From contig CP066691.1 in NCBI GenBank assembly GCA_016432485.1, forward strand, positions 347,762 through 386,708: a stretch of 38,947 nt of DNA. Direction: 5' to 3'. Below are positions 5,389 to 38,947 of the stretch, piece after piece. The position numbers and the translations under genes were made by a program. Source of the stretch: Candidatus Niyogibacteria bacterium. Its GTDB lineage: Bacteria; Patescibacteriota; Minisyncoccia; HO2-45-28. The notes under the pieces are model-generated. The model did not search any database. It saw nothing but the letters and a program-made list of their open reading frames with translations, and was not told where the DNA came from. Within the stretch, counting starts at the first letter, position 1. The number at the start of each line of letters is the position of its first letter.

Positions 5389-6105
5389 TTATCTAAAAAT
5401 TTCGGCAATGCTTTTTTCGCAAAGTAAACCTCCGAGCTGAAGCTCTTTTTCATATTCGTCTATCGTCGCAACCGCTCTATCTATTTTATCGGAGTTCAGC
5501 GGTTCAACCTCAACAAAAACTTCCAGCCTTTCCGGCGGTGAAATGCGCGCGGTTCTGTAAACCACTACTTCCACCAAATTTCCCGCGGGACTTTTCGTAA
5601 TCCATATGTTTCCGCTTTGCTGAACAGTAAAAATTTTGCACGAATCGGCAAGCGCGGCGATAACCGCCAAAAACGCCCCTATTTTTTCCGGATCTTCGTA
5701 TTTTACGCTCAAATTCAATTCCCCTCTCACCATATTAGACCCTTTGTTTAATTGAAACTTTACCGTGAGCTGCGGAGAACGGTTAGCGCCGACTCTATAA
5801 CGAAATATAAACTCGTCGCCGCCTCGTTCCATAATGTAGTACTGATCAACGCCAACAAAAGGAGTAAATCTTTCAACAGTAATTCCGCAATGTTTTAAGC
5901 GCTCTCCAAATCGTGTAATAAAATCGGTAATAACCAAATCCGTATTTTCACCGTTGGGAGTAAGCCAATACTTACGTTCAATCTCCATCATTTTCCTCGG
6001 TAATTTTGAAAGATCAAAAATCTCATCTGCGCTGCCTTGAGCGCCGATAACTAAATCAAGAAGAGCCGAGGCCTCAGAAAGACCGATTTTGCCTTTTTCA
6101 GACAC
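5389..6105 (-). CDS. CYTH-like (triphosphate tunnel metalloenzyme) protein with an N-terminal extension
   Basis: EIERKY (ExExK), DQYY, FRYR, LTVK, R.E.N, EVE and terminal SIAEI motifs. Probable GTG start at 6105 with an AGGAG SD; the ORF extends to 6153. Confidence 0.78.
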   Translation of the reverse strand: MSEKGKIGLSEASALLDLVIGAQGSADEIFDLSKLPRKMMEIERKYWLTPNGENTDLVITDFITRFGERLKHCGITVERFTPFVGVDQYYIMERGGDEFIFRYRVGANRSPQLTVKFQLNKGSNMVRGELNLSVKYEDPEKIGAFLAVIAALADSCKIFTVQQSGNIWITKSPAGNLVEVVVYRTARISPPERLEVFVEVEPLNSDKIDRAVATIDEYEKELQLGGLLCEKSIAEIFR

Positions 6106-7737: not shown

Positions 7738-8478
7738 ATGGCAAAACGCATTTTAGAGGGATTAAACATAGATGAAAAAACCGAGCAGGTGTATCGAGCC
7801 TTGCTTTCTTTGGCCGACGCTCGGGCAGGAACAATTGCCAAAAAAACCGGCATAAAACGAACTAGCGTCTATTACACACTTGAAACGCTAAAACAAATGG
7901 GGCTGGTAAGCTCGTATAATGAGCGCGGAACCGAACGATTTTATGCCGAGCATCCGAGGAAACTAAAAGATTATTTTGATTCCAGAATCATTTTAGCCGA
8001 ACGGCTTATTGAAACGCTTGCTAAAGACATTAAGCCGCCCGTTGACACAGGAAATGTCCGCCTCTTTGAAGGAAAAGGAGGGGTGGAGAGCATTATTGAC
8101 GAAATTCTTGCAACCAAAGACAAAACCGTTCTTTCCGTGGGTTCAGCAGATAAATTTCTGACCGAGTTTGGGCATATGGGGTACGGGGCAAGGAGAAAAA
8201 AACTTGGAATATTTTCAAAAGCGCTTCGCTTTGAGACAGATAAAAAACACCACCAATTTGACCCATCAGGACGCCATCAAAGCAAGTTAAGCAATATTCG
8301 CTATCTTCCGCCGAATTTTGACTTTCCGGGCATGCTGCATATTTTTGACAATCGTATAGCGGTCATAACTTATGAGCGCGGAGGATTGGGTTTTGTCGTC
8401 ACAAGCCAAGAACTTTCCCAAATGATGCACTCTTTTTTTGAAAATTTGTGGGCTACTGCAAAAGGGGGGCGGGAATGA
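7738..8478 (+). CDS. TrmB-family transcriptional regulator (N-terminal wHTH, C-terminal effector/PLD-like domain)
   Basis: VYRALL...AGTIAKKTGIKRTSVYYTLETLKQMGLV HTH; C-terminal IFDNRIAVIT...FFENLW. Confidence 0.88.
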   Translation: MAKRILEGLNIDEKTEQVYRALLSLADARAGTIAKKTGIKRTSVYYTLETLKQMGLVSSYNERGTERFYAEHPRKLKDYFDSRIILAERLIETLAKDIKPPVDTGNVRLFEGKGGVESIIDEILATKDKTVLSVGSADKFLTEFGHMGYGARRKKLGIFSKALRFETDKKHHQFDPSGRHQSKLSNIRYLPPNFDFPGMLHIFDNRIAVITYERGGLGFVVTSQELSQMMHSFFENLWATAKGGRE

Positions 8479-8546: not shown

Positions 8547-8616
8547 AAAAACCCGCGCAAAGAAAAGAAGCGGGGAAAAGTATAACAAAAGCCGACGGCC
8601 GTTAGTTAGTGTTTAC
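8547..8616 (-). promoter_or_regulatory. Copy C of the repeated promoter/operator-like element (orphan, pointing antisense into trmB)
   Basis: 36/37 identity to copy B. The minus strand reads TGtTATACT. No credible minus-strand ORF follows. Confidence 0.6.
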
Positions 8617-8639
8617 TTAAAACCAATTAAAATAAAAAG

Positions 8640-9197
8640 TTAAAACTTTACGCTCACCGCTTCGCGTTCTTGAGCCGAATCAACTTCAAAAAATTTTTCC
8701 TCGCCGAATCCGAAAATTGAAGCTATAAGATTTGAGGGAAAAGAATTAATCTTGGTATTCAGGTCGCGAACGGTCGTGTTGAAAAACCTGCGCGAGGCCT
8801 GAATTTTGTTCTCGGTATCGGCTAGCTCGCGCTGAAGGTCCAAAAAGTTGGCATTGGCTTTCAAATCAGGATAATTTTCGGCAACCGCGAAAAGTGTTTT
8901 TAAAGTGTTGGAAAGCGCGTTTTCCGCGCCTTCGCGTTCAATCGGAGTGCCTCCTGCCAAAGCAACTCGCGCTCTTGCTTCAGTCACGCCGGTCAAAACT
9001 TTTTCTTCATAGCGCATATAGCCCTTTACGGTTTCCACTAAATTGGGAATAAGATTAAATCTGCGTTTCAACTGGACATCAATATCCGAAAGCGCCTCTT
9101 GGGCCCGAAAACGCAAAGTGATAAAACGGTTATAAGCGTAAATAACCCACAAAACTATCAGAACAAATATGGCTATAATCCAATATAAAATCGTCAT
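8640..9197 (-). CDS. lemA: LemA family protein
   Basis: N-terminal TM, YNRF...SDIDVQLKRRFNLIPNLVETVKGY, AENYPDLKAN, ENKI..SRRFFN. Confidence 0.96.
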   Translation of the reverse strand: MTILYWIIAIFVLIVLWVIYAYNRFITLRFRAQEALSDIDVQLKRRFNLIPNLVETVKGYMRYEEKVLTGVTEARARVALAGGTPIEREGAENALSNTLKTLFAVAENYPDLKANANFLDLQRELADTENKIQASRRFFNTTVRDLNTKINSFPSNLIASIFGFGEEKFFEVDSAQEREAVSVKF

Positions 9198-30450: not shown

Positions 30451-30471
30451 GCCCCGACGCAAAGTCGGGGC
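30451..30471 (-). terminator. Probable terminator at the end of the NAD operon
   Basis: GCCCCGAC/GTCGGGGC stem followed by ATTTTT on the minus strand. Confidence 0.65.
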
Positions 30472-30478
30472 CTCGAAA

Positions 30479-32569
30479 TCAACCAGAGATAGTGTCGGGA
30501 ACTTTATCCAAGTCATCAAGCCACGGTTCGGCCGAAGCATCGGACGGCATCCGCCAATCCCCGCGAGGAGAAATGGCAATTGAACCGACCTTTGGACCGT
30601 CAGGCAGGCAAGAACGCTTAAACTGATTTCTGAAAAAACTTGAGAAGAAAACTTTGAGCCACTTCTTTATCTCGCCCACCGAGTATTTCTCTCCAAAAGC
30701 GCACAAAGCCATTCGCGCTATTTTAGACGGCCTGAATCCGAAACGTACGAAATAATATCCGGTAAAGTCGTGAAGTTCGTAGGGGCCGATAATGCTTTCG
30801 GTTTTCTGCGTAATCTTGCCTTTGTCCGGAGGCAGAAGCTCGGGTGAAATCGGAGTTTCCAAAACATCCAAAATGGATTCCCTGAAGCCGGATTCTTCCG
30901 CGAAAATCGTATCGGCCGCCCATCTCAAAAGATATGAAATCAGCGTCTTCGGAACTCCGGCATTTATGCCGTAATGGCTGGCGTGGTCCCCGAACATCGT
31001 GCAGTAGCCGATGAAAAGCTCGGAAAGATCGCCGGTGCCAAGCACAAATCCGCCCTCTTTGACCGAAACTGAAAATAAAATGTGTTTGCGCGCCCAGGCC
31101 TGAATGTTTTCAAGCGTTGATTTTTTCCTGCGCGTATCCGCGTCACTTCGTCCGTCACGCACCGCGGATCCGACTTCGGAAACGAAACTTTCAGCGTCTT
31201 CAATACCGATACTCTTGAAGGACAGCGCGACAAGTTCTTTTATCGGTATTTCACGGAAAGTCGCGCCTGCCGCGTTTATCATTTTGCAGGCGTTCCGGTA
31301 AGTCCGGTCAATCGTGCCGAAACCCGGCATGGTCAACGCGATAATATTGCTTCTAGGCAAACCTGACAGATCAATGGCGCGGATCGCGATATTTAAGGCG
31401 TGCGTCGAATCCTGCCCGCCCGATACGCCAATCACAATTTTTCTGCGGTCCGGCGGCAAAACTTCAAGACGCTTCATCAAACTTGTTGCCTGAATATTGA
31501 ATATCTCACGGCAACGCTCGTCTCTTTTTTGCGGATTTCCGGGAACGAACGGATGCGGATCTATTTCGCGTTCAAAATCAATATTCTCCGAATTACCCAT
31601 GGAATCGCTGAACTCAACAAGACGAAACTCCCTGGCATTATCAAAACCGTTTTGCCTGAAAGAACCCTGGCGCATGCGATCCGAGATAAGAGAATCCAAA
31701 TCAACATCGGCGATTATATGAGTTGAAATGCCGCTGAACCTTCCTGATTTTCTGAGCAACGCTCCCCTTTCGGCAATGTAACCGTCGCCGTCCCAGCCCA
31801 AATCGGTTGTTGACTCGCCAAAACCGGCCGCGGCATAAAGCTGAACCGCGAGATTCCGGGCCGACGAACCGACAACCAAACTTTCACGATATTCGGACTT
31901 GCCGACGGTTATGTTGGAAGCCGAAAGATTGGCCAGAACCGTAGCTCCGGCAAGCGCCGCCATGCTTGACGGCGGCACGGGCACCCAGATGTCTTCGCAA
32001 ATTTCGGTATGCAGAACAAAGTCCGGACGCTTAGCGGATTTAATCAGAATGTCCGAACCGAACGGAACTTTTTGGCCCAGCACGCTTATGATTTTACTTC
32101 TGGCTTCGCGGGCCGGAGCAAAATGGCGCAATTCATAAAACTCGCGGTATTCGGGCGGATATGATTTTGGCGTAACTGCCAGAATTTTTCCGCGCAAAAA
32201 AGTCACGGCGGCGTTAAAAAGCATTTCGTCAACCGTAAGCGGCAAACCGACCGTAACCATCATTTTCCAATCCCGCGTCAAAATAATAAGTTCTTTAAGC
32301 GCCGCAAGCGATGAACGGATAAGAGCGTCCGAAAGAAAAAGGTCTCCGCAGCTGTAACCGGTAATTCCAAGTTCGGGACAGACCGCGTAAGCCGCGCCTC
32401 TTTCATATACTTTTTTCAGCTCTTCAAAATGGCCACAAGCGTTCTTTGACGGATTTGCCAAGTACACTCTCGGAATAACCACGGCCACGCGAAGAAATCC
32501 GTGGTTTTCGACTGCCAGGAAATCTTTAATTTTCCTTTTTTCCATCTCATCCATGATTTTCTCCATCAT
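30479..32569 (-). CDS. nadE: Glutamine-dependent NAD+ synthetase (nitrilase domain plus synthetase domain)
   Basis: CPELGITGY, PKSYPP..EFYE, EICEDIW (E-K-C triad); GVSGGQDST, GTGDLSE, PISPEL, QFKRSCLPDGPKV. Confidence 0.96.
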   Translation of the reverse strand: MMEKIMDEMEKRKIKDFLAVENHGFLRVAVVIPRVYLANPSKNACGHFEELKKVYERGAAYAVCPELGITGYSCGDLFLSDALIRSSLAALKELIILTRDWKMMVTVGLPLTVDEMLFNAAVTFLRGKILAVTPKSYPPEYREFYELRHFAPAREARSKIISVLGQKVPFGSDILIKSAKRPDFVLHTEICEDIWVPVPPSSMAALAGATVLANLSASNITVGKSEYRESLVVGSSARNLAVQLYAAAGFGESTTDLGWDGDGYIAERGALLRKSGRFSGISTHIIADVDLDSLISDRMRQGSFRQNGFDNAREFRLVEFSDSMGNSENIDFEREIDPHPFVPGNPQKRDERCREIFNIQATSLMKRLEVLPPDRRKIVIGVSGGQDSTHALNIAIRAIDLSGLPRSNIIALTMPGFGTIDRTYRNACKMINAAGATFREIPIKELVALSFKSIGIEDAESFVSEVGSAVRDGRSDADTRRKKSTLENIQAWARKHILFSVSVKEGGFVLGTGDLSELFIGYCTMFGDHASHYGINAGVPKTLISYLLRWAADTIFAEESGFRESILDVLETPISPELLPPDKGKITQKTESIIGPYELHDFTGYYFVRFGFRPSKIARMALCAFGEKYSVGEIKKWLKVFFSSFFRNQFKRSCLPDGPKVGSIAISPRGDWRMPSDASAEPWLDDLDKVPDTISG

Positions 32570-33528
32570 GAACCGAGAATCTCTAGAATGGCTTTAGCGA
32601 ACACGCCCGAAACGTCAGCAACGACAATTCTCCGATCGGATAAGCTGGAGCCGAGATTTTGGCTCATTGGATGCGAATTGGTGGTCAGGATCACCCCCGG
32701 AAACGACGTAACAATTTTATGGAAGGCCTCGCCGTCGTTTATGGCCAAATGGCTGATAACGGCGTTAACGTCGGACGCGCCGTGATTCAAATACGCGGCT
32801 GCGGCATTTATCAAACTGCCTCCGCTTCTTAGCATGTCGTCATAAATTATCACGCGCTTGCCCTTAACATCACCTATGACTTCCGCGACCCTTGTGGTCT
32901 CGCCATAACGATCTTTATCAATCATGGCCATGCCGGCCCCGAATTTTCTGGCGAATGTTTTAACCCATTCTGGACGGCCGAGATCGGCCGAAGCGAAAAT
33001 TGTTTCTTGGGGGTTGGCGCACCAATTAAGTTTTTCCATCTCGTCTAAAAGAACTTCTTCGGCATACAATTCAAAACGCAGGCAATCGCCTTCAAAATAG
33101 TGCACAAAACCGGAAACATGAAGGTCCATCATCAGAAAAACATTACGCTTATCGCCGCCGGTTATAGCCGACAGCTGTTTTGCGACGGTTTTCGCCGTAA
33201 CAACTTCGCCCGGCTTTACGGCTCTTTCCATCGTCGAGTAGCCCATAAACGGAATCGCGTAAATGACGCGCTTTACGCCGTATTCGGCTAAAGCGCATCC
33301 GATCCGATAAACTTCAAGCAAGTTGGCGTCTGTGCTGGTGCTTGCGACAAAAATGACATCACGGCCCATGAGTCCCGAGCGGCTATCGGTGGAAATTCGG
33401 TAATATCTCTCGCCCCCTCCGAAAGTTTTCCTTTCTATTTCAGAGAGTTTTGGAATGCCTATTTTTCCGGCAATCAATCTGGCAAAATATTCGGAATCCC
33501 GCGTAGAAAAAATCAGGGGCTCTGGCAT
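32566..33528 (-). CDS. prs: Ribose-phosphate pyrophosphokinase, divergent
   Basis: TFGGGE, PFMGYSTMER, DLH, SADLG and YDDMLRSGGS map onto Prs motifs; AAGGAGG SD. Confidence 0.85.
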   Translation of the reverse strand: MPEPLIFSTRDSEYFARLIAGKIGIPKLSEIERKTFGGGERYYRISTDSRSGLMGRDVIFVASTSTDANLLEVYRIGCALAEYGVKRVIYAIPFMGYSTMERAVKPGEVVTAKTVAKQLSAITGGDKRNVFLMMDLHVSGFVHYFEGDCLRFELYAEEVLLDEMEKLNWCANPQETIFASADLGRPEWVKTFARKFGAGMAMIDKDRYGETTRVAEVIGDVKGKRVIIYDDMLRSGGSLINAAAAYLNHGASDVNAVISHLAINDGEAFHKIVTSFPGVILTTNSHPMSQNLGSSLSDRRIVVADVSGVFAKAILEILGS

Positions 33529-33645
33529 TGCCGTCCTCCTTACTGGTTGAGTTTACAAAGAACTTCCTTCTTAGAGCCGCCTACCCCTTGTAAGAAGCTC
33601 TATGAAAGAGCGGTGGCCGGCCCGAAAGCGGGCCACCGCGAGAAA

Positions 33646-34887
33646 TTAATATTTACACTCTTCAAAGGTCGTGTAGACGTAGCCGAAAATTTTCTTGAAT
33701 CTTTCAACGTCTTTCGGCCTTCCAATGGCTTTTGCGATGTTGTCGCTCAACTTTACAAGCCCTTGGCCACTGGCTTCAACTGTTTTCACCACCAGAGAAA
33801 GGGCTTTAAAACCGAGGTCGTTGGTCAAATTTGTGCCCCAGCCGAAAGTCGTTTTAATCCTGCCATTAAATTCTTTATATAATTCAATAATCGTATCAAC
33901 ATCCAAACCATCGCTAAAAACTATCATCTTTGTTTTCGGATCAACACCCATTTTCTCGTAAAAAGCAATTGCTTTTCTTCCGAACAAAAACGGATCTCCG
34001 GAGTCCTGGCGCAAACCTTTCCAACTCCGCGCCTGTTCAGCAGTCATATCTCCAAAAAAGAAATCTGTCCCGTAAGTATCGGTAAGCGCGATGGAAAGGC
34101 CGAAACCATATTCGTCCCACCAATCCCATAAAACCTTGCTATGAGAAGCGCGAATCGTTTCATCGCTTTCGCCCATAATGCCGGACATCACCATATACAT
34201 TTCGTGAGCCGAAGTGCCCATCGGCAAAAGTCCGTGCTTCATGGCCAAATACGTGTTTGATGTGCCAAGCATCTGACGCGGAATTTCTTCAGCCAAAACG
34301 CCAACGACGTAATCCTGCCAATCGCGACTAAAACGCCTGCGCGTACCAAAATCGCAAAAAGTTATATTGGGGCACTCGCAAAGTTTACCTATTTTTCCAT
34401 CCAAACGCTTTCGGCCTTCGGCAAAAACCAAATCCCGCCCGAAACGGCTTTCCATGGAAAGAAGCGACCGATAATAAAGTTCGTTCACTATCGCAAGCGC
34501 TATTGTTTCCCAGTAAATAGCGCTTGACCACTTGCCGGAAAATTCCAGCAAAAACTGGCCGTCTCTTACCTCCAAATCGTAATCCGGCAATTCCAGTCCC
34601 GACAAAAATTCAAGATAATCTTCTTTAAACATTCGCTCGCCATATTCGTTGGTGCCTCGAAGATAATGGATTTCCGTTTTATTGAATTTCAGTTCGCGCG
34701 CGTAATCCAGCTCGCGGCGCAAATCGCTTTCCGGAACGAAATGCGCGATCTGGATAGCTGTTGTTCTGTTCGTCAAAGCGTAACGAACCGGCACATCCGG
34801 ATAACGACGATAGACCACTTGTCCCATCGTAAATTTGTAAAAATCAGTGTCCAAAAGAGACCGGATTATTGGTTCGCGCTCGAGCAT
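33646..34887 (-). CDS. pncB: Nicotinate phosphoribosyltransferase
   Basis: SLLDTDFYKFTM, DFGTRRRFS, GTSN, GTSAHE, RQDSGDP, FSDGL, FGWGTNLTND, KLSDN. Confidence 0.96.
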   Translation of the reverse strand: MLEREPIIRSLLDTDFYKFTMGQVVYRRYPDVPVRYALTNRTTAIQIAHFVPESDLRRELDYARELKFNKTEIHYLRGTNEYGERMFKEDYLEFLSGLELPDYDLEVRDGQFLLEFSGKWSSAIYWETIALAIVNELYYRSLLSMESRFGRDLVFAEGRKRLDGKIGKLCECPNITFCDFGTRRRFSRDWQDYVVGVLAEEIPRQMLGTSNTYLAMKHGLLPMGTSAHEMYMVMSGIMGESDETIRASHSKVLWDWWDEYGFGLSIALTDTYGTDFFFGDMTAEQARSWKGLRQDSGDPFLFGRKAIAFYEKMGVDPKTKMIVFSDGLDVDTIIELYKEFNGRIKTTFGWGTNLTNDLGFKALSLVVKTVEASGQGLVKLSDNIAKAIGRPKDVERFKKIFGYVYTTFEECKY

Positions 34888-34902
34888 TCCGTTTTCCTCC
34901 TT

Positions 34903-36276
34903 TCATCCGGGGAATTGGCTGGACATGATTTTTTCGGCTCGGTCTGGCGGAGTCGCCAGTTCGGCTGCGGCAATCCGGCTTCGTCGGATTTTCATTTCAA
35001 TTACCGGGCCCTGGTCCGCGCCGTCAACGAAACCGTTAAGCGGTCTTTTGACCGGATCAAGCGTCCTCCAAGTAACGGTTGAATCAAGCGTAATCTGCGT
35101 CGCTTTCCAGTTGGGACGCGCCACATTGGAGCCGACCAAAGTCAAAACGGGCGCGTGAACCGGAACCGCCAAAGCGCCCATCGCTTTGGCGTAAGCAGTG
35201 GAGCCGGCGGGAGTGGCCGCCAAAATTCCGTCAGCCACAAGCAAAGGGATGCGCCGGACTCCGTCTATTTCCAATTCAATCCAAGCGGTTTGCCCCGCCC
35301 CCCTTTCAACCCAGACATCATTAAACGCCAACGCCCGTTTCGTCATTCCCCCCGCATCCGTAATTTCAACATAAAGCAAAGGCATCTGATCCAAATCAAC
35401 GCTTAAACTGCCGCTCAAAAGTTCACGAACGGCCGGACTTTCAGGGTCATTCATCAAAAATCCATGAGTGCCTTTGTTAATCCCGAAAAACGGAAGTCTT
35501 TCCCGCCAATGGCTTCGGATGGCATGCAGCATAAACCCGTCGCCTCCGATAACCGTAATCAAATTCGGATGGCTTGAATCTCTTAAACCCGAAACCCGAA
35601 CAAATTCTTCGGCTTTCGGGTTGCGGCCGTCAAAAAGAACTTTCGGACGAACCTCGCTTAAGACCAGCTGGGATCGCCCCGAAATTCGCGCTCCGCGGTA
35701 AAGACCGTGACGAAGAATATAATCATTGATTTTACGGTCAACCAATCCTTCAACGGACTCGCGTCTGAAAACTTTTTCCCGGGTTTCTGAAGAGCTTCCG
35801 GTAAATGCTTCGTAAAAAACCCTGCTTCTCGGCGGAAGGTCGCGATCAGCCATTTCAATACCTTGTCTGTAAACAACCGCGAAATTAAGCTCGCGCCAAA
35901 TTTCTTCCCCCCGTTCCCATTCGCGCTGAATAAAAGACCGGCCCTCGTTTCCGCCCTTAATCAAATCGGCGCCGACAATGTGCCAGATTTCTCCGCCGCC
36001 GCGAAACATTGCGTCAAGATTATGCGTGCGGGTAAACGTGCCCATTTCCAGATCAAAAAGTTCAACTCTTACGTTGGGTAAACCGCTAAAAGCCATATCA
36101 ACCATAGTCGCGCGATGCACAGGATCAATATCATTGACGGTCGGCTTATCCGGCCTAGGCCCGCAGGGAATGATAATCACTTCATCAAACTCGCGCGCCA
36201 CCATCTCAACAATAAGCCGGTGGGCAACGCGCGGAGGGTTAAAGCTCCCGCCGTAGATCGCGATTTTTTTAGTCAT
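34903..36276 (-). CDS. Fused nicotinate-nucleotide adenylyltransferase (NadD-like) and NAD kinase (NadK)
   Basis: N-terminal IAIYGGSFNPPRVAH...SSSETR; C-terminal IGGDGFML, GINKGTHGFLMN, FNDV, DGILAATPAGSTAY; single continuous 457-aa ORF. Confidence 0.9.
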   Translation of the reverse strand: MTKKIAIYGGSFNPPRVAHRLIVEMVAREFDEVIIIPCGPRPDKPTVNDIDPVHRATMVDMAFSGLPNVRVELFDLEMGTFTRTHNLDAMFRGGGEIWHIVGADLIKGGNEGRSFIQREWERGEEIWRELNFAVVYRQGIEMADRDLPPRSRVFYEAFTGSSSETREKVFRRESVEGLVDRKINDYILRHGLYRGARISGRSQLVLSEVRPKVLFDGRNPKAEEFVRVSGLRDSSHPNLITVIGGDGFMLHAIRSHWRERLPFFGINKGTHGFLMNDPESPAVRELLSGSLSVDLDQMPLLYVEITDAGGMTKRALAFNDVWVERGAGQTAWIELEIDGVRRIPLLVADGILAATPAGSTAYAKAMGALAVPVHAPVLTLVGSNVARPNWKATQITLDSTVTWRTLDPVKRPLNGFVDGADQGPVIEMKIRRSRIAAAELATPPDRAEKIMSSQFPG

Positions 36277-36501
36277 GCCGTTCCTCCCTTTCAGGGTGTT
36301 ATTTTTTTTAAAAGAACGCTTGCCTCAATTCGCCTCTCGGCTCAATTAAGGCAAGAGAATCGCAGCCAAATTTGCTTGTCCCGCCATTGGCGGGGTCAGC
36401 TAAAATTCTCTTACTTGTCCCATCTCGCCCCGCCGTCGGCGGGGTAAAGGCGGGAAAAATTCTTTTAAAGAATAACATAAAGTCAAGAAAAGATCAAGTT
36501 T

Positions 36502-36538
36502 TCCCCACCTTTTTGGCTTAAAGCCAAAAAGGTGGGGA
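36502..36538. repeat. Perfect 17-bp-stem palindrome
   Basis: TCCCCACCTTTTTGGCT-TAA-AGCCAAAAAGGTGGGGA. Confidence 0.75.
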
Positions 36539-36573
36539 TTTAAAATTTAATTCAAAGAACAACTTCATAAAAA

Positions 36574-38310
36574 CTACTTCATGCGAGCTGACCAAATTTC
36601 ACCTTCATATATATAGAGAACTCTGTCCCCGATATTGGTCAAAGCCATTTCCGTTGAAATCTGGCCGTCTTGAACGCGACTTACATTTCCGGTCGCGGGA
36701 ACAAACACATCCAGCTCGCCATCTCTGACTATCGCCGCGCAAACGCCTTTGGGCAAAATAGCGATGTTAATATCCGGGTCGTCGGTCTGTCCATGCCAAA
36801 CCCGGTAGCTTGCGTAAGTTTTGTCAAATGACAATTCAATTTTTTGATACTGTCCGTTTTTATCAACCGCTACGATGGATATAAATCTGGGCCCTGCTTT
36901 CGCCGATATTGGACATAGGCCGTCTAATTCCCGTACTCGTACTTGAGCGCAAGCGTTATCGCCGAAAGGAGCAATGATGAAACTTGCCCCCATCGCGTTT
37001 TGTATTCCCGCGCCGTCAAACCAGGTTATGGAATTTACCGTTGCTCCCCAGGTATTCCCGGCGGACATCACCGGCTTCAAGGCGCCTCTCACGACAAGTT
37101 CGCAGAGCCCGTCTTCTATCACGGCAAAAATCCTATTTTCATAACGGAGTATTTCTCGCACATTCAGATGAATTGAAAGTTCGGTTTCCTCAAAGTTAGC
37201 GGCGCTAATGAATGAGAATAACGGCTTAAATCCGTCATAATCGGCCTTAAGCCACCCTCTGCCTGCGTCAACTACTTCGCATTTCTTTGATTTTACCAGG
37301 CCAATCTCGCGCCTCGTATTAAGATCAATCAAACGACCAGATTCAAGCAGAACAACTCCGCAAGGAAAAACACGGATTGCTTTATCACTTTTATCGGAAA
37401 AAATTTTGTCGCAGATGAGCAAACCGCTGCCGGATATAACCGCGTGTTTGACTTGGACAGCTGGCGCCGTCATCAAACTCTTGTCGAAAGGCGAAGGAGG
37501 GATCGACCTTTGACCGTTTTGGAAAGTCGCCACATACCAGTCAAGGAGCTTTCCAGGAATCACGGAGAAATCGCGCACCGCGCGATTCAGACGCACGCCC
37601 GGAGAAAACACCGAAGCGTTGGCTTTCATCCGCCTCTCCAAATCACCCCGCTCAAAACCGTCAAGCGTACCTTTGTAAGGGTGTATGCCGGTATAAATCT
37701 GAAAGCTTACAACCCCCCAGGAAAACCAATCAGTCAGTTTGTTAAAATCCTTTGAATGCCAATCCCTGATGGAGGGCATAATCGCGCGCGCCGGCCATCT
37801 AGCAATCTGCCATGAATCAACATCAATAATTCTTGGTTCGGGGCCGCTATTCCGGGCAAGCACAGCTTTCCAATTTAACTCATTCGGGTCCACAAGAATC
37901 GCCCCAAAACTATGAGCAAAAGAAATCGTCTCCCTCATTCTGTCCGTTAAAATAGAGGCGTCTTTATCCGTAAAACCCTGACGCGCGCGAAAGTCATTGG
38001 TAAATAGACGCATAAAAGGTTCGCCTTCAACAAAATCCATATAGAATCCCGCCACCTTACCCCTTTCGTCAAAAACTAATCCTTTCGGCGCGACGATATA
38101 TTCATGCTTTATACCGGAAAGAAGTTTTATTTTCTCCGCCATATCATCGCGCGACATCTTTGTTGAATCCAAATACAGCTTCACGGCAGTACCATGCGCT
38201 CTGTAAATTGAGCCTTCGCCGCCAGTGGCAACATGATCGCCTGAAGGGTGAATCGTAAGTTCGCCCCGACCATCAAGTTTTACTTTGATGTTTTTCAGGA
38301 ATCTAGCCAT
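36574..38310 (-). CDS. Eukaryotic-like Ser/Thr protein kinase, YegI-like, with an unrecognised beta-rich C-terminal domain
   Basis: GGEGSIY, AVKLY, LVDPNELN, IIDVDSWQ, TDWFS and GIHPYKG kinase subdomains; no obvious TM. Confidence 0.88.
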   Translation of the reverse strand: MARFLKNIKVKLDGRGELTIHPSGDHVATGGEGSIYRAHGTAVKLYLDSTKMSRDDMAEKIKLLSGIKHEYIVAPKGLVFDERGKVAGFYMDFVEGEPFMRLFTNDFRARQGFTDKDASILTDRMRETISFAHSFGAILVDPNELNWKAVLARNSGPEPRIIDVDSWQIARWPARAIMPSIRDWHSKDFNKLTDWFSWGVVSFQIYTGIHPYKGTLDGFERGDLERRMKANASVFSPGVRLNRAVRDFSVIPGKLLDWYVATFQNGQRSIPPSPFDKSLMTAPAVQVKHAVISGSGLLICDKIFSDKSDKAIRVFPCGVVLLESGRLIDLNTRREIGLVKSKKCEVVDAGRGWLKADYDGFKPLFSFISAANFEETELSIHLNVREILRYENRIFAVIEDGLCELVVRGALKPVMSAGNTWGATVNSITWFDGAGIQNAMGASFIIAPFGDNACAQVRVRELDGLCPISAKAGPRFISIVAVDKNGQYQKIELSFDKTYASYRVWHGQTDDPDINIAILPKGVCAAIVRDGELDVFVPATGNVSRVQDGQISTEMALTNIGDRVLYIYEGEIWSARMK

Positions 38311-38947
38311 GTTTGCGCCTGCCGGTCGGAATTTTCTGCCCTGATAACGGCGTACGCAATGTCGTCTATCGGCCCCCGGCCTCTTTTTCTGGCATCTTTA
38401 ATGCCGCGAATCATGCGCCTCTTTGCGAACTCTCCCGCTAAATTTTTAAACGCCAGAAATTCAATAACAGCATTCTTCCAATCCATGCCGTCAATCTGCG
38501 CGATACCGTCAGAAAATAAAGCTGTAAGAGCGTTATTTTCCACATCCGAGGCATCCAAAAAAATCGTTATTCCGCGCATGCCCTCGCTCAACGTGAAATT
38601 TTTCACGCCGCCGAAAGTGAAATTGCCCTGATCCCAAATATAAATTTCTTCAGTCAATCGGATGGAATTCAGGTCTCCGCGGTGCGCGGCAACAAAACCG
38701 CCCAGGCCCCTTTCGGCATACGCGGGATAAAACGGAATATTATCGCTCCATTCAAACTTAGACATAAAGACACGCCCGGCGCGATTTTTAATCGCCAGAA
38801 CTCCGTCGCCCTGTAAATTTACATAGCCCCCGTTTGCGGCAAGGCAGGCGTGCAAACAAGTGGCAAGCATATCTTTTTCTTCCAGACCAAGCATACTGCG
38901 CGCGCCGGATATTACGGCTTTTTGCCACAGATTTACCTTTTCTACCG
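38295..38947 (-). CDS. PP2C-like (PphC/YegK-like) protein phosphatase, 5'-truncated
   Basis: LATCL...QGDG, LFSDGI and IDDIA motifs. The frame stays open from the track start (38894) to the window edge. Its stop overlaps the kinase start. Confidence 0.8.
   Translation of the reverse strand, partial: VEKVNLWQKAVISGARSMLGLEEKDMLATCLHACLAANGGYVNLQGDGVLAIKNRAGRVFMSKFEWSDNIPFYPAYAERGLGGFVAAHRGDLNSIRLTEEIYIWDQGNFTFGGVKNFTLSEGMRGITIFLDASDVENNALTALFSDGIAQIDGMDWKNAVIEFLAFKNLAGEFAKRRMIRGIKDARKRGRGPIDDIAYAVIRAENSDRQAQTWLDS

Follow-up and report, generated by a model that had tools for sequence, protein, structure and literature searches.

The final 8.5 kb of a 38,947-nt stretch of Candidatus Niyogibacteria DNA, together with the 3.7 kb that follow it, probably form a two-unit island for the salvage of nicotinamide adenine dinucleotide (NAD). 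The stretch, called the window below, covers positions 347762-386708 of a single-contig 837-kb genome (assembly GCA_016432485.1, contig CP066691.1; labelled G000). One unit is the regulator gene nrtR and a cassette of four genes, encoding a nicotinamidase-like enzyme, a von Willebrand factor A (vWA) protein, a PP2C phosphatase and a Ser/Thr kinase; NrtR-type operators overlap the promoters of nrtR and of the cassette. The other is an NAD(P) operon with its own promoter and leader RNA. Our confidence in the island is a blend of two parts: the anatomy and the regulon assignment are very probable, while the particular switch mechanism set out below is possible though doubtful.

Open reading frame (ORF) and domain searches found the genes named in a preliminary description of this DNA, all on the minus strand and at or very near their earlier coordinates. 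In the final 8.5 kb of the window they follow in the order PP2C, kinase, nadD-nadK fusion, pncB, prs and nadE, and rodA and then rpoB lie on the far side of a terminator-like hairpin after nadE. The same description had pointed to the sequence past position 38947 as a possible site of vWA, PncA or Nudix genes, and a vWA-fold protein, a nicotinamidase-like protein and a Nudix-type NrtR were indeed all present there. Their genes lie on the minus strand within the 3.7 kb past the window end, directly upstream of the PP2C gene. The next 16 kb past the window were read as locus L002, in which a position plus 36238 gives the extrapolated window coordinate. The cassette and its regulator gene are as follows.

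L002 4833-5504, minus strand: nrtR, 223 aa, matching PF21906 at 2.1e-24 (winged helix) and PF00293 at 1.1e-12 (Nudix)
L002 3793-4611, minus strand: nicotinamidase-like enzyme, 272 aa, isochorismatase-like, with conserved nicotinamidase residues
L002 3022-3771, minus strand: vWA protein, 249 aa, fold model with a pLDDT of 84.4 and a pTM of 0.83
Window 38295..38947, minus strand, cut by the window end: PP2C_2-type phosphatase, 296 aa (PF13672, E 6.7e-12)
Window 36574..38310, minus strand: Ser/Thr kinase, 578 aa, with a Hanks-type domain at about 1-275 and a beta-propeller at about 286-578

The full PP2C gene (G000:C1 386056-386946) reaches window coordinate 39185, with 216 of its 296 aa inside the window, and its ORF overlaps that of the kinase by 16 nt.

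The link between the cassette and NAD metabolism was examined across genomes by scanning species-representative genomes for kinase loci, which gave 79 loci. The order nicotinamidase-vWA-PP2C-kinase, co-oriented and with short gaps or overlaps, was kept in 71-74 of them, the exceptions being cut by contig ends. The hosts included many Patescibacteria as well as Bradyrhizobium, Micavibrio, Accumulibacter, Desulfosudis and Chthonomonadaceae. When all other ORFs in the cassette loci were clustered, the only recurrent neighbours were pncB (41 loci), nrtR (35), nadE (24) and NAD kinase (20), and smaller sets comprised canonical PncA, NH3-dependent NadE, PnuC, NadR and a nucleoside deoxyribosyltransferase-Nudix protein. 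Full flanks, meaning at least 6 kb to either side, were available for 37 loci; 32 of these carried another NAD gene and 27 carried pncB, which sat in ten different positions or orientations relative to the cassette; in related genomes pncB was found in 9 of 61 and the kinase in 3 of 61. Linkage kept through so many rearrangements suggested a functional link rather than inherited synteny. The proposal that the kinase/phosphatase pair is tied to NAD salvage was thus borne out, both by these neighbours and by the nicotinamidase-like gene with which the cassette starts.

The module had also been described as portable, which agreed with its patchy presence in the genus and the class and its occurrence in several phyla and in huge-phage records. 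All four genes were found in the same order, with other genes interspersed, in two GenBank records labelled uncultured phage (485 and 595 kb). A 411-kb IMG/VR contig was rejected as a phage copy: it carries nrtR and the cassette at an identity like that within the candidate phyla radiation (CPR) and may be a misfiled CPR genome, so the phage occurrence rests on the two GenBank huge-phage records. Some public labels of metagenome-assembled genomes (MAGs) are automatic and possibly wrong.

Two possible variants were noted. At L026, L028, L029, L065, L068 and L084 the longest ORF over the nicotinamidase-like gene measured 511-535 aa against about 275 aa elsewhere, through either a fusion at the N-terminus or an ORF that was called too long. 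Locus L109 (genome G073, from another family; 5-460, 640-1059 and 1717-2490) has a divergent vWA-like gene and two genes for nicotinamidase-like proteins, the leader RNA lying between these and nadD downstream; no kinase match was found within the 3-kb stretch examined, and the locus may be a reduced or variant cassette.

We next considered how the two units are transcribed. The regulatory elements of the cassette are given below.

L002 5521-5618, minus strand: two tandem nrtR promoters, with an NrtR-type box over each -10 element (5521-5541 and 5574-5594)
L002 4792-4822, minus strand: cassette promoter TTGCCA-17-TACAAT, overlapped by the NrtR-type box TTAGTGTATAAAATACAATAA
L002 2948-3021, minus strand: hairpin in the vWA-PP2C spacer (z -3.7), followed by GUUUUUCU
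Window 36503..36537, minus strand: very stable hairpin after the kinase stop, with a 17-pair stem (-33.9 kcal/mol for a 90-nt stretch, z -7.4)

Three 21-bp palindromes of the form TTAGTGT-N7-ACACTAA were found within about 0.8 kb around nrtR, each over a -10 element. The box at the cassette promoter (L002 4792-4812) covers the spacer and the -10 element and fits the pattern at 13 of 14 positions, better than any other site of the genome. NrtR-type boxes were kept in both cassette-bearing sister genomes. At a threshold of at least 12 of 14 positions, 26 of 67 loci had a box in the 250 bp upstream of the nicotinamidase gene, compared with 2% of control windows, and across the loci boxes stood mainly before the pncA-like gene, pncB, nrtR, nadK, pnuC and nadE. 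In this genome no such box was found before nadDK, pncB, prs or nadE. The second-best genome match (12 of 14) is at window 8606-8626, between ORFs 7738-8478 (plus strand) and 8640-9197 (minus strand) and far from the NAD genes; it may be a chance occurrence.

The second unit consists of the following elements.

Window 36459..36497, minus strand: NAD-operon promoter-like region, TTGATC/TTGACT ... TATTCT/AAGAAT, including TTGACT-16-AAGAAT
Window 36306..36414, minus strand: two-hairpin leader RNA in the nadDK 5' untranslated region (UTR), about 110 nt, conserved across the genus
Window 34903..36276, minus strand: nadD-nadK fusion, 457 aa, with a CTP_transf_like domain (similar to nicotinate mononucleotide adenylyltransferase) at 1-200 and NAD kinase at about 225-455
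Window 33646..34887, minus strand: pncB, nicotinate phosphoribosyltransferase, 413 aa (NF003704, 446.8 bits, cut-off 379)
Window 32566..33528, minus strand: prs, ribose-phosphate diphosphokinase, 320 aa (TIGR01251, 152.7 bits, cut-off 113)
Window 30479..32569, minus strand: nadE, glutamine-dependent NAD+ synthetase, 696 aa (CN_hydrolase PF00795 and NAD_synthase PF02540)
Window 30451..30471, minus strand: terminator-like hairpin at the end of the NAD operon, between nadE (8 nt past its stop) and rodA

The candidate internal promoter noted earlier before the NAD genes proved to be real and conserved: it lies behind the very stable hairpin and was found in G001 and G002, the former being a sister genome without the cassette. 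Because the promoter and the leader are kept in the cassette-less G001, and the leader also in G003, the NAD operon appears to be transcribed on its own. A single operon joining the kinase/phosphatase pair to the NAD(P) genes, as first described, was therefore not upheld; the NAD(P) genes are a unit apart, lacking an NrtR box and having a promoter and a leader RNA to themselves. The hairpin at 36503-36537, conserved in G002, is likely the end or an insulator of the cassette transcript. Within the cassette, the vWA-PP2C spacer was structured (z < -2) in 37 of 43 loci (86%; median z -3.47), compared with 34% of 147 size-matched control spacers (median z -0.95), which suggests attenuation or differential mRNA stability between the enzyme-vWA and the PP2C-kinase pairs. 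A separate observation concerns the 5' UTR of the nicotinamidase gene (L002 4612-4792, minus strand, about 190 nt). It showed 90% identity among three genus genomes, exceeding the amino-acid identity of the flanking proteins (82-88%), and has about five hairpins with some pair-preserving changes and no Rfam match.

In the second unit, PncB, Prs and NadE scored above the curated NCBIfam cut-offs. NadE scored 801.3 bits with NF002730 (cut-off 473), and PncB also exceeded the equivalog threshold for nicotinate phosphoribosyltransferase (TIGR01514, 348.6 bits, cut-off 269.55). By tblastn, prs and all other genes of the block were single-copy in the genome, so Prs is the only phosphoribosyl pyrophosphate (PRPP) synthetase of the cell and not a dedicated duplicate. 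The terminator that had been noted ahead of rodA was confirmed as the hairpin running from 30471 to 30451; its 8-pair stem has 7 GC pairs and is followed by ATTTTTTATA (-17.4 kcal/mol, z -3.5). Together, the two units would encode the path from nicotinamide through nicotinate, nicotinate mononucleotide and nicotinate adenine dinucleotide to NAD+ and NADP+, with PRPP supplied by Prs.

The leader of nadDK was better conserved among the sister genomes than the proteins or the coding sequence. Two adjacent hairpins make it up; the loop of the first takes a variable insert, and the tail, containing GUUCUUU, is conserved. In this genome a hairpin specific to the lineage, CCCCGCC-AAT-GGCGGG, is inserted. 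With a covariance model derived from the genus, the leader was found in 5 of 5 genus genomes and upstream of a pncA-like-nadD pair in another family, and a second model found 13 more sense-strand copies in six other kinase loci. The copies mostly lie directly before nadK, pncB or pncA-like genes or the cassette, often several per cluster; besides the window, the loci with the leader are L029, L030, L037, L039, L046, L070 and L109. Over 22 sequences, in an alignment that was fitted to the covariance model and is thereby biased toward structure, 93.7% of cells were paired and 27 of 28 pairs showed compensatory changes. This level was reached by none of 500 shuffles, and slid controls were far lower. 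G-U pairs are conserved on the coding strand, which argues for an RNA rather than a DNA site. An Rfam scan of the whole locus at E <= 1 gave no NAD riboswitch and just chance-level matches to mir-186 and Ysr197. A leader search in 400 randomly drawn genomes of the phylum matched this genome alone and was uninformative, since NAD loci are rare. These features make the leader a candidate NAD-pathway riboswitch or protein-binding leader. Two further ideas about its parts were rejected: the CCCCGCC-N3-GGCGGG hairpin is not a genome-wide repeat of the repetitive extragenic palindromic type, being confined to this leader, and the GUUCUU tail is too common (86 genome copies) to be a specific mark of all three leaders.

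As to the proteins of the cassette, the vWA protein, PP2C and the kinase could not be usefully characterised by PADLOC, NCBIfam or single-sequence PDB searches, and profiles and fold models were needed. In the PADLOC scan of selected genes, the vWA protein and PP2C had no match and the kinase had a weak mad6 match, none of it significant. Pfam Pkinase also matched the kinase weakly. Its fold model (pLDDT 80.8) showed a Hanks-type kinase plus a beta-propeller, with an LRRK2 kinase-WD40 fragment as the top Foldseek match; further matches were CaMKII, ULK1 and bacterial PknS over the N-terminal half, whereas those over the C-terminal half were the propellers of Vps18 and Nup133. The residues invariant in the family are K44 (beta3 Lys), D141 and N143 (catalytic loop), and D163 and D165 (DFG-equivalent). 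Compared by hhalign, the family matched E. coli K-12 YegI (96.3% probability, E 1.5e-9) over the kinase domain alone. The earlier term 'YegI-like' is thus apt for the kinase domain and does not extend to the C-terminal half, which was modelled as the propeller. Full-length relatives with about 55% identity occur in many CPR lineages, and 918 clusters at 50% identity were obtained at E <= 1e-30 from a library of 1.84 billion proteins.

The phosphatase retains the metal-binding aspartates of PP2C as invariant residues (D25, D42-G43, D127, D226-G227 and D274-D275), and its family matched E. coli PphC at 93.4% by hhalign. The vWA protein had no match in Pfam; the PDB fold matches of its model were nearly all vWA or integrin I domains, and the residues of the metal ion-dependent adhesion site (MIDAS) are conserved (D41, T43, S45, T114 and D150). 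Its last 20 or so residues form a Ser/Gln-rich tail, SSQSQALGTGGPSQ, that is predicted to be disordered yet is near-invariant, and this Ser-rich tail would be the most obvious candidate for a phospho-acceptor or docking motif. Profile comparison with YegL was weak (63.6%), and the aligned part included the Ser-rich stretch past the last helix. In the nicotinamidase-like enzyme, the triad D9, K157 and C207, the metal site D53, H55 and H123, and the WPxHC motif were invariant over 34 sequences, and the significant PDB matches of the family profile were all nicotinamidases (2h0r, 7.5e-9). Pfam Isochorismatase gave 22.8 bits, under the cut-off of 27, and the enzyme is about 60-90 aa longer than the matched solved PncA, with an insert between the metal site and WPxHC. 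NrtR has an N-terminal Nudix-like domain, from whose Nudix box the catalytic glutamates are gone, and a C-terminal NrtR winged helix.

Based on these features, we propose the following tentative mechanism for the island. NAD consumption would yield ADP-ribose and nicotinamide; by analogy with characterised family members (PMC2330246), ADP-ribose would lift NrtR repression, and the cassette would be made. The nicotinamidase would then supply nicotinate to PncB, NadD, NadE and NadK. The vWA/PP2C/kinase trio would act as a reversible phospho-switch that gates the nicotinamide entry step after translation: the propeller of the kinase would receive a signal, kinase and PP2C together would determine whether a target is phosphorylated, that target being most obviously the Ser-rich tail of the vWA protein, and the MIDAS-bearing vWA protein would then engage or release the nicotinamidase. 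In its fullest form, the tetrad would be a mobile, signal-gated valve into deamidating NAD+ salvage that is common to ultra-small bacteria and huge phages, its propeller sensing an NAD-breakdown or infection cue. Kinase and PP2C would write and erase phosphate on the vWA tail, and the phosphorylated tail or the MIDAS would clamp or release the nicotinamidase. With PncB, NadD and NadE, the valve would make up a fourth, Preiss-Handler-type NAD+ reconstitution route, here under two independent sensors, NrtR and the leader RNA. We regard this fullest form as unlikely.

Several observations weigh against the salvage island as we read it. The NadD and NadK domains are recognisable, yet their matches lie under the equivalog cut-offs, and the (H/T)xGH motif of NadD is non-canonical, with GGSFNPPRVAH at residues 9-19 in place of GGxFxPxHxGH. 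Since both the scores and the motif are irregular, the complete route to NADP is one that we infer, and catalytic activity of NadD is plausible, not assured. The first His of the motif varies across the clade (R, C, G, T or A), and HH closes the motif in many members; over the whole NadD and NadD-NadK subfamily, this pattern suggests a shifted or altered catalytic motif. NrtR of this genome is presumably ADP-ribose-responsive, as assumed from its family, and the substrate of the kinase could be PncB, NadD-NadK or something unrelated. Five full-flank loci, two of them in Bradyrhizobium, have no nearby NAD gene. A canonical PncA of 215 aa is also present in six cassette loci, and the cassette enzyme may therefore not be a plain nicotinamidase.

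The sister genomes add to these points. This genome has the full set, and G002 has the same gene order with a kinase apparently split by stops and a frame change, although G002 is a co-assembled MAG and the disruption may need read-level confirmation. In G001, nadDK-pncB and nadE are 95-98% identical to ours, but there is no nrtR and no cassette anywhere in that genome; the same slot (L016 2887-13068) is occupied by another island, of 10 kb. The cassette is thus accessory, sits at a site of variable content and is dispensable for the neighbouring NAD operon. Besides three proteins without a Pfam match, the G001 island encodes an AAA ATPase (644 aa), pyruvate-kinase-barrel-like and PurA-like (adenylosuccinate-synthetase-like) proteins and one of 640 aa with a Pol-beta nucleotidyltransferase domain; it is possibly a defence island, with the slot as a variable hot spot. 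In G004, nrtR and the cassette are kept while nadDK is a stub of about 36 codons (MTKITIYGGSFHPS...) between the leader and pncB (L018 148-300), indicating that the adenylyltransferase-kinase fusion was lost with the cassette retained. G003 keeps the leader, nadDK and nadE, and no kinase, pncA-like gene or pncB was detected in its 100-contig assembly. Faster evolution of the kinase and PP2C was tried as a sign of conflict and rejected: their identity to the G002 and G004 orthologues (61-69%) is no lower than that of nadDK, prs, nadE and rodA.

The island could instead serve in conflict, as the preliminary description proposed, the cassette and the NAD genes rebuilding NAD+ after the action of NADase toxins or defence effectors (SIR2, TIR), as a deamidating counterpart in CPR bacteria and huge phages of the phage NAD+ reconstitution pathways (NARP). 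Such a role overlaps the salvage switch preferred here and differs from it mainly in selective context. NADases release ADP-ribose and nicotinamide, of which the former frees members of the NrtR family from DNA (PMC2330246) and the latter would be used by the cassette enzyme. The two huge-phage records, the patchy distribution resembling that left by horizontal gene transfer, and the filling of the G001 slot by another island, as in variable defence hot spots, point the same way. In addition, triads like TerY-P, that is, a TerY-like vWA protein, PP2C and a Ser/Thr kinase (Anantharaman, Iyer and Aravind 2012, as cited in PMC10542128), can be stand-alone anti-phage systems according to the same account (Gao et al. 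2020, per PMC10542128). However, no NADase, toxin or known defence gene was identified beside the cassette, with no significant match in the PADLOC scan of selected genes; the recurrent neighbours of the cassette are ordinary NAD metabolism genes, and NARP1-3 as described use other enzymes. We consider a conflict role rather doubtful.

A very unlikely alternative, in our judgement, is that the vWA/PP2C/kinase trio is an independent TerY-P-type system for signalling or defence that merely travels beside the nicotinamidase gene and has no functional link to NAD. TerY-P triads do occur in many unrelated contexts (PMC10542128), the NAD operon of G001 stands without the cassette, and a conserved hairpin divides pncA-vWA from PP2C-kinase. 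Nevertheless, the four-gene order was kept in nearly all of the 79 loci, in CPR bacteria, Proteobacteria and Chthonomonadaceae and also in phage records, while other neighbours change; the NrtR-type operator before the first gene would control all four; and the kinase has a propeller where the described TerY-P types have a Zn-ribbon or an OB fold. It is likewise quite unlikely, though somewhat less so, that the 272-aa enzyme acts on another amide (nicotinamide mononucleotide, nicotinamide riboside or a signalling nucleotide) or senses nicotinamide, with the triad reporting its state. The extra length and insert of the enzyme, its sub-threshold Pfam match and the canonical 215-aa PncA in six loci are in keeping with a different chemistry. 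On the other side, its nicotinamidase catalytic and metal-binding residues are all invariant, the significant PDB profile matches are all nicotinamidases, and the commonest neighbour, pncB, consumes the nicotinamidase product.

TerY-P-type triads are widespread, and no direct molecular target of them was described in the literature searched. Here one triad sub-family, of about 900 protein clusters, is hard-wired to a single metabolic enzyme in a defined regulon, and the cassette gives a definite substrate and output on which a triad of this kind can be tested. Literature searches (NrtR/vWA/PP2C/kinase, nicotinamidase, TerY/PncA and NARP) found no published description of the cassette, and no link between phosphorylation control and NAD recycling was found in the literature searched. 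If the salvage switch is true, it would be a case of bacterial NAD salvage controlled by Ser/Thr phosphorylation. The module also occurs in huge phages, and NAD+ depletion and reconstitution are a current theme of phage-host conflict. For CPR bacteria, the results suggested that making NAD(P) from vitamin B3 is an accessory trait, which even members of a single genus acquire, exchange and let decay. Two separate cis-regulatory systems govern it, and one of these, the leader RNA, is uncatalogued.

Four known systems were compared with the island. Like the NAD+ riboswitches of class I (nadA motif) and class II (pnuC motif), the leader is a structured 5' element before NAD genes and is sometimes found in tandem; unlike them, it has no Rfam match at E <= 1 and has a different architecture. 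The phage pathways NARP1 (Adps and Namat), NARP2 (Nampt and NMNAT) and NARP3 (PnuC and NadR) (bioRxiv 10.1101/2024.02.11.579819; PMC13464706) are also gene sets that rebuild NAD+ from breakdown products or precursors, and the cassette too is found in huge-phage records. They have no kinase, phosphatase or vWA component, and domain searches found none of their enzyme pairs in the window or the 3.7 kb beyond; the route here is a deamidating one of the Preiss-Handler type (nicotinamidase, PncB, NadD and NadE).

The likeness to NrtR regulons is closer. Clostridium acetobutylicum has an nrtR-pncA-pncB-nadD-nadE cluster, NrtR sites have a GT-N7-AC core, and ADP-ribose relieves the DNA binding of two members of the NrtR family (Rodionov et al. 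2008, PMC2330246). The island shares the regulator with Nudix and winged-helix domains, the 21-bp palindromic GT-N7-AC operators overlapping promoters, and a pncA-type first target near pncB, nadD and nadE. It differs in that the regulated operon includes the vWA/PP2C/kinase trio, and among NrtR targets the text of PMC2330246 names neither a protein kinase nor a phosphatase nor a von Willebrand domain. It differs also in that pncB, nadD-nadK, prs and nadE are without a box and have a leader RNA instead.

The trio itself resembles TerY-P and the YegL-PphC-YegI set of E. coli, with the same three protein types, adjacent and co-oriented, and the vWA protein of the cassette has a complete MIDAS and a Ser-rich tail. 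The profile comparisons with the E. coli triad (96.3% for the kinase, 93.4% for PP2C and 63.6% for the vWA protein) indicated distant homology. The vWA protein lacks a Pfam vWA match. No protein of the trio matches a PADLOC model significantly, a negative that depends on the TerY-P models included there. Kinases of described TerY-P systems carry a C-terminal zinc ribbon in the classical type or an OB fold in the Gao 2020 defence type, as recounted in PMC10542128, whereas the cassette kinase ends in a beta-propeller of about 290 residues. Finally, the cassette has a nicotinamidase-like gene as a fixed fourth member, and it stands under an NrtR-type operator among NAD genes rather than with Ter genes or restriction systems.

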